Virus record (IMG/VR): IMGVR_UViG_2778261214_000022
Location: 1-49,673 of that record
Direction: 5' to 3' (one strand)
DNA from: a virus
Lineage: Duplodnaviria > Heunggongvirae > Uroviricota > Caudoviricetes
Length of the DNA: 49,673 nt
Shown: positions 17,062-18,330 of the stretch, in pieces
Numbering within the stretch: position 1 is the stretch's first letter
How the letters are laid out: every line of letters begins with the position of its first letter
Made by a program: the position numbers and the translations under genes
Notes under the pieces: generated by a model
What the model was told of the DNA's origin: nothing
The model's input: the letters and a program-made list of their open reading frames with translations, nothing else
The model's database searches: none

Positions 17062-17088
17062 AAAACCCGCTTAATGTGGGTTTTTTTA
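17062..17088 (+). terminator. tR-prime-like intrinsic terminator downstream of Q-like gene
   Basis: aacccgc-ttaat-gtgggtt followed by TTTTTTT, ~80 nt after Q-like stop. Confidence 0.6.
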
Positions 17089-17700
17089 CGCCCGAAAAGT
17101 GGTGCGGTACGTTAAACGTGCCCGAGGCTGTGAATACGGTTTTTTAGCTCACTGATTTTCTCGACAGGAATTATTGGTATGTCAAAATGCTACTGACAGA
17201 TAAACTGAAAAATGCACAATAAGAGAAGAACGGGAAACTTATTATCAAGCAGAATACGAGACGCGAACTAAGATAGGTGACCGTGCTGGCAGTTTCATTG
17301 TTCATCTGCCAGCGTTTGACACAGGTTGTGTACTGGCTGCGAAAGCGCGTGGGGTGATGAGTTCTGCGTTCACATACAGGGTGGTGTGAAGCCAGCTTTT
17401 TGTGTATTCAGATGGCATTCTGATTTTGTTTGGAGTTTTTAATATCAAGGGATTACGCATCGGGTCGCCAGCTTAATACAATGTATTTAGTAATGTGATG
17501 CTTAGTATCACTTATATTATTACGACCCCCTTTTTTAGAGGGGCGATATGGCGTGTTTAGTAATTTTTTATTCAAACAAATTTACAATTACATAGTTGGT
17601 AAATATTGCATCCTGATTATTTATTAGTATTATTTTTGTGGTTCCGAGGGAATGATACATTATGTATCGGGGCATCTCATCTCACTCCCGAGGAACCAAC

Positions 17701-17776
17701 GCCGACTTAGCTCAGCAGGCAAAGCAACTGACTTGTAATCAGTAGGTCACCAGTTCGATTCCGGTAGTCGGCACCA
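17701..17776 (+). tRNA. tRNA-Thr (anticodon UGU)
   Basis: Hand-folded cloverleaf: perfect 7 bp acceptor stem, anticodon stem actga/tcagt, loop cuUGUaa, T-loop ttcgatt, encoded CCA; one mismatch each in D and T stems. Confidence 0.8.
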
Positions 17777-17779
17777 TAT

Positions 17780-17851
17780 GCGGGTATCGTATAATGGTTA
17801 TTATCTCAGCCTTCCAAGCTGATGATGCGGGTTCGATTCCCGCTACCCGCT
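17780..17851 (+). tRNA. tRNA-Gly (anticodon UCC)
   Basis: Hand-folded cloverleaf: 7 bp acceptor gcgggta/tacccgc, anticodon stem tcagc/gctga, loop cuUCCaa, perfect T stem gcggg/cccgc; no encoded CCA; weak D stem. Confidence 0.7.
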
Positions 17852-18026
17852 CTCTTGTAAAACAAACGAGGCATAGCTTTATCAGCACTGGCGAATTTTC
17901 GCGGAGAACAGCTTTGTAGGTACTATTGTTTTTCTTCATGCTGTAATATCTGAACGGTTACAGTTTCAGTGCTGCTTTTTTTGTATTACATAATGGTATG
18001 TGATTATTACTTGTAAACGTCGTTAG

Positions 18027-18103
18027 CAGAATGAGTCGTTACCTGTTCCATGCGCACACGTACAGTAAGCCAGGGTGGCTTTGTAGGTTGACGACTCATT
18101 CTG
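18027..18103 (+). other. Long inverted repeat (13 bp stem, ~50 nt loop)
   Basis: cagaatgagtcgt ... acgactcattctg. Confidence 0.4.
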
Positions 18104-18153
18104 GTGGCGACCATATATAAATATAATTCTATTACTACACGATGAATGCTCTG

Positions 18154-18180
18154 GCCCGTCTCCTGACGGGCATTTTTTTA
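18154..18180 (+). terminator. Intrinsic terminator
   Basis: gcccgtc-tcctg-acgggc followed by TTTTTTT. Confidence 0.6.
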
Positions 18181-18307
18181 TCCATATACAGGGTTCGTAC
18201 CAGCGGACCTTTTTCACATCTGTGTCCTGCACACACCACACCAGAAAACACCAGATAACACCACACAAAAGGCATCTGCGGGTGCCTTTGATGGGGTGTT
18301 TTTTTAC

Positions 18308-18330
18308 GGGCCGACAGAGGCCCTTTTTTA
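18308..18330 (+). terminator. Intrinsic terminator just upstream of holin RBS
   Basis: gggcc-gacaga-ggccc followed by TTTTTT. Confidence 0.6.

Follow-up and report, generated by a model that had tools for sequence, protein, structure and literature searches.

A probable Q-type late-operon leader and a putative self-contained tRNA operon with two conserved RNA structures in an Escherichia coli lambdoid prophage

Introduction

The textbook late-gene cassette of lambdoid phages consists of a Q gene, the late promoter PR', a pause element, a terminator and the late genes (bioRxiv 10.1101/651190). In the Stx phages of the Sp5/933W type, this plan is extended to the order Q, PR', the terminator tR' (which gives rise to the StxS small RNA), a tRNA promoter, the tRNA genes ileZ-argN-argO, stx and the lysis genes, and differential RNA sequencing of the Stx2 phage of strain Sakai has mapped the tRNA promoter between tR' and stx2AB (Sy et al. 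2020, PMC7547250). Toxin genes and small RNAs bound by Hfq have been described in the slot between PR' and the lysis genes (PMC4104026; PMC8550237; bioRxiv 10.64898/2026.05.13.724894); the small RNAs include AgvB, AsxR and EcOnc03 (PMC4104026) and PasA, PasC and PasD (PMC8550237; bioRxiv 10.64898/2026.05.13.724894). Here we analyse the corresponding slot, positions 17,062 to 18,330, of the tailed-phage record IMGVR_UViG_2778261214_000022, where two tRNA genes lie between a Q-like gene and the lysis genes. The whole stretch of 49,673 nucleotides that was analysed is called the window, and an earlier note on it had been made from the letters alone.

A second group of described systems bears on the tRNA genes themselves. 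Two RNAs, rtT from the tyrT operon and 3'ETS-leuZ (the 3' external transcribed spacer of glyW-cysT-leuZ), stem from the trailers of tRNA operons; both are structured, lie between an operon's last tRNA and its intrinsic terminator, are freed by tRNA processing, and end in a U-tail to which Hfq could bind.

Positions 16950-18350 of the window are 100% identical to the chromosome of E. coli strain C5, a cow isolate, and 98-99% identical to three other E. coli genomes. To judge from such matches and from gene content, the window is an E. coli lambdoid prophage, and the part considered here its nin/Q/lysis region. For comparison we used 80 loci encoding relatives of its holin, together with phi467, SerU-LTIIb, 52F4 and KS-NP019 (labels such as L006 denote single fetched loci), and genome counts were taken among 5,426 complete E. 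coli genomes. Across these loci the region from Q to holin is a mosaic of modules; in the window the interval between the two genes is 1.37 kb.

We read this interval, with a probability of about 70%, as a modular late-operon leader, made of a PR' cassette, a self-contained tRNA operon and a terminator stack, that acts as a Q-dependent gate before the holin gene. What is directly observed comprises the parts themselves and how far they are conserved and covary, the relationship of the Q protein to known Q antiterminators, and the codon bias of the prophage; the coordinates are collected in Table 1. With the Stx-phage region the locus shares Q, a constitutive promoter with an early terminator, tRNAs with their own promoter past tR' (PMC7547250), a cargo slot and the lysis genes. 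It differs from that region in that Q is of the DUF1133 type, the tRNAs are Thr(UGU) and Gly(UCC), and toxin or other protein cargo is absent. Its tRNA operon also carries a conserved 5' hairpin and a branched trailer, of which the Stx-phage literature consulted makes no mention. The overall design is thus textbook lambdoid biology, and what appears to be new is the pair of conserved tRNA-operon RNA structures without a described family.

A DUF1133-type Q gene and its candidate promoter cassette

The gene upstream of the interval encodes a full-length DUF1133 protein (Pfam, E = 7e-106). This protein passes the cut-off of the Phage_antitermQ family (PF06530) marginally, with 26.2 bits against 26, and its single-sequence comparison with the Q protein of phage 21 (Q21) is not significant (E = 0.13). 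A profile of 18 members of the DUF1133 family reaches E = 1.3e-5 against the Q21 chains 6JNX_P and 6P18_P, aligning in both the N-terminal part (residues 15-39) and the C-terminal part (residues 95-178). Homologues carry PF06576 together with PF06530 in precomputed annotation, the protein is 85% identical to ECs_1958 of the Sakai prophage Sp10, annotated as a phage antiterminator, and a survey of Stx phages counted DUF1133 as a Q antiterminator on the basis of HHpred (PMC8136144). This homology makes the gene a distant relative of Q of phage 21: its product is homologous to the Q21/Q933W family (PF06530), and a promoter, an early terminator and lysis genes follow it directly. The earlier note had proposed a Q-antiterminated late operon, a proposal now well supported by the Q homology, by a conserved cassette of promoter, hairpin and terminator, and by the holin, holin and endolysin genes that follow.

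The -35 hexamer of the candidate PR' overlaps the stop codon of Q. The block to which it belongs is kept immediately 3' of that stop codon in 12 of the 13 distinct DUF1133 loci; two loci with a different Q C-terminus have TTGCAA at the same place and with the same 17-bp spacing, and Sakai Sp10 also possesses the PR'/terminator block. Transcription would start near A17013, so placing a short hairpin at the very beginning of the transcript. At one position of its stem a U-A pair in the window is a C-G pair in other loci, a compensatory change, and the hairpin might provide a pause or a Q-loading context. The position of tR' is occupied by a terminator in all DUF1133 loci, with a varying sequence and a variable stretch before it. 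Taken together, PR' and tR' predict a leader RNA of ~75 nt, apparently unprocessed, whereas the Stx-phage leader is 258 nt long and is processed to 74 nt. The layout of 16978-17088 fits that of the usual PR'/tR' cassette, and the promoter, early element and terminator, like the distant homology of Q, recall the Q21 cassette (PF06530; PDB 6JNX, 6P18). The poorly studied DUF1133 type of Q thereby gains a concrete candidate PR'/tR'.

Two further observations concern the surroundings of tR'. A terminator very similar to the candidate at 17064-17090 (AACCCGCTTCGACGGGTTTTTTGTTACG, 15135-15160) lies between a Hok/Gef-type toxin open reading frame (ORF; 14926-15066) and the DUF1367 gene. The 500 bp that separate tR' from the tRNA promoter (17100-17600) are free of annotated genes, and no ORF in them exceeds 52 codons; pieces of this stretch recur elsewhere, directly before the long hairpin in L022 and as an 80-nt piece of ~77% identity in many loci.

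A putative tRNA operon with its own conserved promoter

ARAGORN finds exactly two tRNAs in the 49.7 kb of the window, Thr(tgt) and Gly(tcc). The two anticodons given in the earlier note are thereby confirmed, and both genes score far above the Rfam tRNA threshold (Table 1). A candidate sigma-70 promoter precedes them. All leader variants listed keep its -35 hexamer, 16-bp spacer and -10 hexamer, with 8-9 of 12 consensus matches and with A2 and T6 present, even where the sequences differ, and the distance from the end of the promoter to the first G of the leader hairpin is 5-8 nt in all variants listed. The hexamers are TTGCAT/TATTAT in the window, TTGAAC/TATGAT in phi467, TTGAAA/TAATAT in SerU-LTIIb and others, and TTGCGA/TATCAT or TTGATG/TAGTAT in further loci. 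This arrangement of promoter and leader, which falls into two sequence classes, precedes tRNA-Thr or its remnant wherever that is the first element of the cluster.

The promoter-plus-leader module also occurs without a DUF1133 Q nearby, namely after stxAB in phi467, after a methylase gene in SerU-LTIIb, and downstream of the gene for a differently annotated Q family protein in KS-NP019. Since it is found beside such different upstream genes, the module is not tied to the DUF1133 Q gene, which argues against the tRNA promoter being Q-responsive. In Sakai Sp10, the PR'/terminator block is followed at once by a promoter (TTGCGG, 17 bp, TATTAT) that ends 9 nt before ileZ4; because Sakai has a tRNA promoter downstream of tR', the general design was already known. 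We suggest that the two tRNAs form an autonomous operon with its own conserved sigma-70 promoter, from which transcription would start at the upstream hairpin, at ~17640. The earlier note had not recognised this autonomy. Prophage tRNA clusters in this slot thus appear to be autonomous, promoter-driven operons with at least two unrelated leader types.

The module may also matter for toxin expression. Its relatives lie beside stx2 in phi467 and, in SerU-LTIIb, beside a duplicated lysis-gene block that precedes the LT-IIb toxin genes; in this Stx2 phage and this LT-II toxin late region, its promoter and terminators may affect basal toxin expression. In phi467 (L005, 1339-3749) the tRNA promoter, the leader hairpin and the Thr-Gly module come after stxAB; stxA in turn is preceded by two genes of opposite orientation, and no Q gene adjoins stx within the fetched stretch. 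A host origin of the tRNA promoter was considered and rejected: the K-12 thrU promoter has the same TTGCAT -35 hexamer and nothing else alike.

Conserved leader and trailer structures

The imperfect hairpin that had been noticed upstream of the tRNAs (at 17641-17697) is real and slightly longer, spanning 17639-17698 and ending 3 nt before tRNA-Thr. Its 17-nt arms are 82% complementary, and its fold of -23.8 kcal/mol has z = -2.6. The two leader classes were aligned separately, as a joint alignment put class II out of register. In class I (11 distinct sequences), the outer stem passes from GGUUCC/GGAACC through GGUUCU/AGAACC to GGCUCU/AGAGCC, the inner stem varies via G-C, G-U and A-U pairs, and the two-by-two GA/GA internal loop is invariant. 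Here 91.7% of cells are paired, compared with 22-68% when the partners are slid, and three pairs are changed on both sides, as many as in 9 of 500 shuffles. Class II (7 sequences; CUGGUCC...GGACCAG with a GGAA/GAAR loop) has 92.9% of cells paired and likewise three two-sided pair changes. The leader hairpin matches no Rfam family in the window or in 20 related loci. It could serve in precursor protection, as a processing mark, or in protein binding through its tandem G-A motif.

The trailer that follows tRNA-Gly is ~130 nt long, of which the junction takes up ~100 nt, and its fold has z = -2.9 to -3.2. A closing helix of AGCACUG (17884-17890) with CAGUGCU (17967-17973) encloses three internal hairpins and is followed by two bases and a U7 run (17976-17982). 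A counterpart exists in nearly every locus with a tRNA cluster. We collected 32 distinct sequences, in about five subfamilies between which the hairpin sequences are largely unrelated. When the closing helix alone is constrained, 31 of the 32 variants give three internal hairpins, 29 of them in compact form, while the compact three-hairpin fold arises in 3.6% of dinucleotide shuffles. Covariation was measured on a MAFFT alignment made without structural information. In the four-helix structure 88.4% of cells are paired, against 37-49% after sliding. Twelve pairs are changed on both sides (6.5 +/- 1.5 in shuffles) and 43 cells show such a change (14 +/- 4.7 in shuffles), values that are each reached by none of 500 shuffles; in a smaller version with 15 pairs, 98% are paired.

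All 49 trailer occurrences in the fetched loci (L002-L094) are in the late orientation, and nearly all adjoin the last tRNA (Gly, Arg, or a 3' acceptor-end remnant), L081 being without a recognisable tRNA end. The commonest subfamily is present in 302 of the 5,426 genomes (~5.6%), where it carries no RNA annotation. When 185,579 species, each represented by one genome, were scanned for the exact pattern, the pairing of tRNA-Gly and trailer turned up only in E. coli, Shigella flexneri and Escherichia ruysiae. The plus strand of 17853-17990 matches no Rfam 15 family at E up to 10, and the trailers of 20 related loci match none at gathering thresholds. A literature search on prophage tRNA trailers and on ileZ/argN/argO promoters, with subscription journals mostly outside its reach, returned nothing on these elements. 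Thus leader and trailer, which are conserved, show compensatory changes across many prophages and belong to no Rfam family, appear to be undescribed. They are the most conserved structured RNAs of the region, rather than the long hairpin discussed below, a point that the earlier note had missed.

We read the trailer, as modelled, as the probable terminator of the tRNA operon, built as a branched structure. It is possible, although less probable than not, that the trailer is more than this: the first known case of a structured RNA family, as yet undescribed, which accompanies the tRNA clusters of Escherichia and Shigella prophages, and that it persists after tRNA cleavage as a stable RNA with its own function, the GA/GA leader being a second specific element. 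Such a trailer could act as a small RNA or sponge through its ~30-nt single-stranded 5' part and its U-tail, or as a tRNA-shaped decoy or processing signal, and the leader would then be, for example, a protein-binding or RNase site that sets the tRNA level in the lysogen. The trailer resembles rtT and 3'ETS-leuZ in position only, lying like them between the last tRNA and a terminator. Unlike them, it has a four-way junction and is restricted to Escherichia/Shigella prophages, and it shares with them no sequence or covariance-model similarity (Rfam, E up to 10). Leader and trailer may be stable RNAs in lysogens of pathogenic and commensal E. coli.

In most related loci (L002, L007, L039, L050 and others) the trailer is followed by a conserved block, AATGGTGCATTATCGGTGGAGATTTTGTATTTCC, and then by ~250 nt ending in a strong terminator (GACCGCC...GGCGGTTTTTTTT), which stand in place of the long hairpin and terminator T1 of the window. 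This stretch, from AATGGTGCATTATCGGTGGAGATTTTGTATTTCC to the terminator, may be another RNA module.

A predicted terminator stack before the holin gene

The three plus-strand terminators that had been placed before the holin gene all hold up, with stems at 18154-18171 (T1, followed by U7), 18257-18300 (T2, U7) and 18308-18323 (T3, U6). To them are added four elements that the earlier note had missed: the terminator at 17061-17088, the branched terminator at 17884-17982, the hairpin T1b at 18190-18214 and the tRNA promoter at 17606-17633. In all, six terminator-like hairpins lie between Q and holin, every one on the late (plus) strand. Four of them (17061-17088, 18154-18179, 18257-18305 and 18308-18329) have the G+C-rich hairpin and U-run of an intrinsic terminator; T1b is a weaker case, and 17884-17982 qualifies only via the closing helix that encloses its three hairpins.

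The T1b stem is preserved through base changes in 52F4 and SerU-LTIIb, and the aligned position in Sakai Sp10, after argO4, is occupied by a terminator followed by the same downstream sequence block. In the C/A-rich tract between T1b and T2, the 10-nt unit ACACCAGAAA (18238-18257) is present twice in the window and at least three times in the near-identical L013 and L025. The 100-nt block of T2 and T3 with the holin is the most widespread piece of the region, found in 528 of the 5,426 genomes; of 36 distinct sequences upstream of the holin, most contain it, and all, even those without T2, keep T3 together with the Shine-Dalgarno sequence and the start of the holin gene. Terminator-like sites with at least five G-C pairs number 13 in 40 kb of both strands, and two of them lie here 150 nt apart on the same strand. 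These counts come from the standard scan, as a permissive one gave 111 plus-strand matches in the window and was too lax for measuring enrichment.

The working of such a region can be pictured as follows, on the strength of what is established for Q cassettes and of the Sakai data, from which we infer start sites, termination at each hairpin and Q read-through; any roles of leader, trailer and long hairpin beyond termination, processing or stability are likewise surmised. Two constitutive promoters, PR' and the tRNA promoter, would point at the holin gene. Without Q, transcripts from PR' would stop at 17087, yielding only the short leader RNA. In the lysogen, transcripts of the tRNA operon would stop at 17982, with the remaining terminators catching leakage. 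The series of terminators would stop polymerase from either constitutive promoter, so that the lethal holin stays silent. That the tRNA operons are autonomous and lie upstream of a lethal holin would thus explain the need for a terminator stack. The tRNA operon would meanwhile supply the lysogen with tRNAs for ACA and GGA, codons about twice as frequent in the prophage as in the host. Upon induction, Q would load at PR', and only polymerase so modified would read past the six terminators and reach the genes for lysis and morphogenesis; the tRNAs would then also be cut out of the long late transcript by RNase P and RNase E.

Several observations weigh against this reading of the interval. A sigma-dependent pause element and a Q-binding element or direct repeat, which the Q21 cassette possesses, could not be identified with confidence in the strongly conserved early transcribed region. 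PR', with its -10 hexamer TTCAAT, scores under the 9-of-12 cut-off of our consensus promoter scan, and so does the tRNA promoter, with 8 of 12 matches. The ~550 bp between tR' and the tRNA promoter (17100-17600) are unexplained by the model. It is unusual for the "loop" of an intrinsic terminator to be branched and ~76 nt long, and in a simple scan the 1.5-kb region has four terminator-like sites against 1.9 +/- 1.3 in shuffles, which is not significant. The codon enrichment is moderate, and its host reference is only a 49-kb sample. Lastly, the start sites, the 3' ends and the read-through are all deduced rather than observed.

The long hairpin and the question of a small RNA

Of the inverted repeat with a 13-bp stem and a 50-nt loop described between the tRNAs and the terminators, the stem proves to be the core of a longer hairpin, with ~29 pairs, -46 kcal/mol and z = -5.3, as good a fold being reached by none of 200 shuffles. 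Together with T1, which is kept in all its variants, this hairpin forms a module present in 23 of the 5,426 genomes, at a median of one place per genome. Three sequence types, of 72-73% overall identity, conserve the arms, a GAUGAAUG box and T1, and vary in loop and linker. The arms are the most conserved parts, and only four compensated pairs are found among six sequences. The rarity and single copy of the module led us to reject a dispersed palindromic repeat or miniature inverted-repeat transposable element of the ERIC/IRU kind. The hairpin might be an RNase III-type processing site in the late transcript or part of a small RNA, and we regard the first guess as equally reasonable.

That hairpin and T1 (~18014-18180) constitute a discrete, independently transcribed small RNA gene, of the sort that occupies the "moron" slot of enterohaemorrhagic E. 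coli (EHEC) prophages (AgvB, AsxR, Pas), is compatible with our model and in our view rather unlikely. The very stable hairpin, the A/U-rich linker and the strong terminator with its U7 run would suit such a gene, as would the preservation of arms, box and terminator in three sequence types, and Hfq-bound small RNAs are known in exactly this slot (PMC4104026; PMC8550237). They too are short RNAs ending in strong terminators by the holin, and T1 resembles the terminator of AgvB (GCCCG..CC..CGGGCAUUUUUU). The window even contains a perfect TATAAT at 18122-18127, but this is specific to its type, the others having AGTAAT or TTAAAC, and no promoter on the plus strand before the hairpin emerges from the consensus scan, nor is any conserved among the three types. 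The weak Rfam matches of the terminator part to AgvB and STnc100 are far under threshold and derive mostly from the terminator, similarity to PasA, PasC and PasD2 is lacking, covariation is weak, and the module is rare. In the small RNA pairs of Tree et al., moreover, the genes are convergent, with AsxR antisense to stx2AB (PMC4104026), whereas every candidate in the window lies on the late strand. The discrete RNA of ~150 nt ending at 18180 that the earlier note had envisaged is therefore not supported, given the want of a conserved promoter, the sub-threshold Rfam scores and the count of 23 genomes.

The individual candidates for this part of the window were rejected as follows. AgvB (RF02702) reaches 22.4 bits against 56 at 18129-18178, mostly through the terminator, and the match to STnc100 (RF02076) scores 20 bits where 47 are required and leaves out 125 of the 206 positions of the model. 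The Pas small RNAs, cut by their published coordinates from E2348/69 (NC_011601) and covering PasA in both forms, PasC and PasD2, though not PasB and PasD1, give no alignment to the window with E < 0.05, the best being an 18-nt terminator arm. For the C/A-rich tract as an anti-GcvB sponge, the best duplex with R1 has -18.3 kcal/mol, only within the top 7.8% of all 30-nt segments of this sequence, which falls short of AgvB-type R1 mimicry; its duplexes with full-length GcvB are no better than those of shuffles. In L006 a 1-nt difference in length disrupts the 38-codon ORF overlapping T1 (18142-18258), which speaks against a small protein gene as well.

The tRNAs and codon usage

Of its 76 positions, tRNA-Thr shares 73 (96%) with K-12 thrU; the three differences are confined to the D-arm, and the gene encodes its CCA. 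The tRNA-Gly is identical to K-12 glyT at 70 of 75 positions (93%), with one compensated pair in the acceptor stem, and has no CCA in register (17849-17858), its 3' end reading GCU-CUCUUG instead of GCU-CCA, with CUCUUG after the discriminator; the CCA would therefore have to be added after trimming. Host thrU, tyrU, glyT and thrT form a single operon in K-12, and both phage tRNAs were likely captured from the host long ago. At the same position, related loci carry Thr-Gly, Gly alone, or a Met/Ile-type tRNA with Lys, Arg, Thr and Gly.

In the ORFs of the window, ACA occurs at 15.4 per 1000 codons (26% of Thr codons) and GGA at 14.4 (20% of Gly codons), against 7.4 (12.5%) and 5.4 (7.7%) in a 49-kb sample of K-12 put through the same analysis, a small reference that includes ribosomal protein genes. 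The codon-usage comparison proposed in the earlier note thus comes out as expected, both codons being 2- to 2.7-fold commoner in the prophage than in this sample. This bias fits the usual explanation of codon supply.

Alternatively, the main role of the phage tRNAs might be to make up for host tRNAs that anti-phage or toxin systems cut or deplete, and not to match codons. The related clusters consist of tRNAs with U at the first anticodon position or of readers of A-ending codons (Lys UUU, Arg UCU, Thr UGU, Gly UCC and Ile-type CAU), and these classes overlap the targets of anticodon nucleases; the confinement of the tRNA-Thr changes to the D-arm and the compensated acceptor-stem change of tRNA-Gly could be seen in the same light. 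We nevertheless judge replacement improbable, because the anticodon loops are the same as those of the host, and would give no escape from an anticodon-loop nuclease, and because the codon bias runs in the direction expected from codon supply.

The tRNA genes show some variation among the relatives. Sister variants of tRNA-Gly end in GCU-CUCCAG or GCU-CCA, and all tRNA genes examined in the K-12 thrU-tufB operon encode CCA. In loci with "Gly only" (L006, 2860-2925; L008, L019, L039 and L067), tRNA-Thr has shrunk to a remnant of ~45 nt upstream of tRNA-Gly, which lacks the D and anticodon arms. Its acceptor stem is still paired, with a compensated change in L067 (GCUGGCUC/GAGCCAGU), and the remnant may still act as a processing minihelix.

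Could leader and trailer be relics, or the tRNA promoter a late promoter?

One might also suppose that the leader hairpin and the trailer are decaying, functionless relics of further tRNA genes from the host thrU-tyrU-glyT-thrT operon. The two intact tRNAs both have their counterparts in that operon, the topology of the trailer recalls a cloverleaf, thrT (TATCAGCAC) and the anticodon arm of tyrU give short matches, and the deleted tRNA-Thr of some loci demonstrates that remnants do exist. We consider such an origin very doubtful. The thrT and tyrU matches score 9-10, like other chance local alignments, and neither leader nor trailer matches a tRNA model or has T-loop or D-loop signatures. Pairing is kept through many compensatory changes, the closing helix, U-run and GA/GA loop are invariant, and the fold persists in five sequence subfamilies, which is a signature of selection, not of decay. 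Local alignments of the two elements to thrT, tyrU, thrU and glyT stay at chance level, and we rejected tRNA relics as their source.

Least credible of all is that 17606-17633 is the true Q-responsive late promoter, the hairpin after it a Q-loading or pause part and the tRNAs the counterpart of the lambda 6S leader RNA, for although the promoter is conserved at a fixed position to the hairpin, the leader loop offers the -10-like motifs CATTAT and TACAAT ~18-23 nt past the start, and a terminator (the trailer) comes after, Q proteins are promoter-specific and the module sits beside unrelated genes without an adjacent DUF1133 Q (phi467, SerU-LTIIb, KS-NP019), it is the cassette at 16978-17088 that accompanies the DUF1133 gene (in 12 of 13 distinct loci), and the tRNA-Ile/Arg clusters of Sakai Sp10 have a comparable promoter of their own after tR' without a leader hairpin.

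Gene context and other features of the window

Table 1. Features of the Q-to-lysis region, with positions in the window
Feature	Position	Strand	Characteristics
Q-like antiterminator gene (DUF1133 family)	16439-16981	+	Pfam, profile search, Sakai homologue; RefSeq coding sequence at the same coordinates
Candidate PR'	16978-17006	+	-35 TTGATT (16978-16983), 17-bp spacer, -10 TTCAAT (17001-17006)
Early-transcribed hairpin	17013-17041	+	9-bp stem in minimum-energy fold
First terminator after PR' (tR'-like)	17061-17088	+	10-bp stem, then U7 run
Putative sigma-70 promoter of tRNA operon	17606-17633	+	TTGCAT, 16-bp spacer, TATTAT
5' leader hairpin of tRNA transcript	17639-17698	+	Outer stem, GA/GA internal loop, inner G-rich stem
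tRNA-Thr(UGU)	17701-17776	+	ARAGORN; Rfam RF00005, 65.0 bits (threshold 29)
tRNA-Gly(UCC)	17780-17852	+	ARAGORN; Rfam RF00005, 65.4 bits (threshold 29)
tRNA-operon trailer (M3)	17853-17982	+	Single-stranded 5' part (~30 nt, mostly unpaired), then four-way junction, U7 run
Long hairpin (M4)	18019-18111	+	Arms 18019-18039 and 18091-18111, perfect 13-bp core
Terminator T1	18154-18179	+	GCCCGUC-UCCU-GACGGGC, then U7; z = -4.1
Terminator-like hairpin T1b	18190-18214	+	GGUUCG-UACCAG-CGGACC, then U5; -11.8 kcal/mol, z = -2.6
C/A-rich, G-poor tract	18222-18270	+	10-nt direct repeat ACACCAGAAA / ACACCAGATA
Terminator T2	18257-18305	+	Extended stem, then U7; z = -5.5 for T2 and T3 together
Terminator T3	18308-18329	+	GGGCC-GACAGA-GGCCC, then U6; 7 nt before holin Shine-Dalgarno
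Holin, first lysis gene (PF16931)	18348-18737	+	Pfam; RefSeq annotation of identical C5 prophage
Second holin	18727-19002	+	Pfam; RefSeq annotation of identical C5 prophage
M15 endolysin	18999-19382	+	Pfam; RefSeq annotation of identical C5 prophage

In the RefSeq annotation of strain C5 the gene order is DUF1367, DUF1364, DUF1133, tRNA-Thr, tRNA-Gly, a putative holin, a second holin, an M15 peptidase and the terminase genes, and Pfam agrees with it for all six window proteins tested. The annotation of the identical C5 sequence also places an IS21-like element (ISEc12, istA and istB) in the early region of the prophage, at ~9900-12900. At the gathering threshold, Rfam has matches in the window at 463-607, 2169-2347 and 41139-41224. 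They are to SraC/RyeA and SdsR/RyeB, small RNAs of the core genome that probably mark a border of the prophage, to the RalA antitoxin RNA, and to sRNA-Xcc1, the last on the minus strand in the region of the tail genes.

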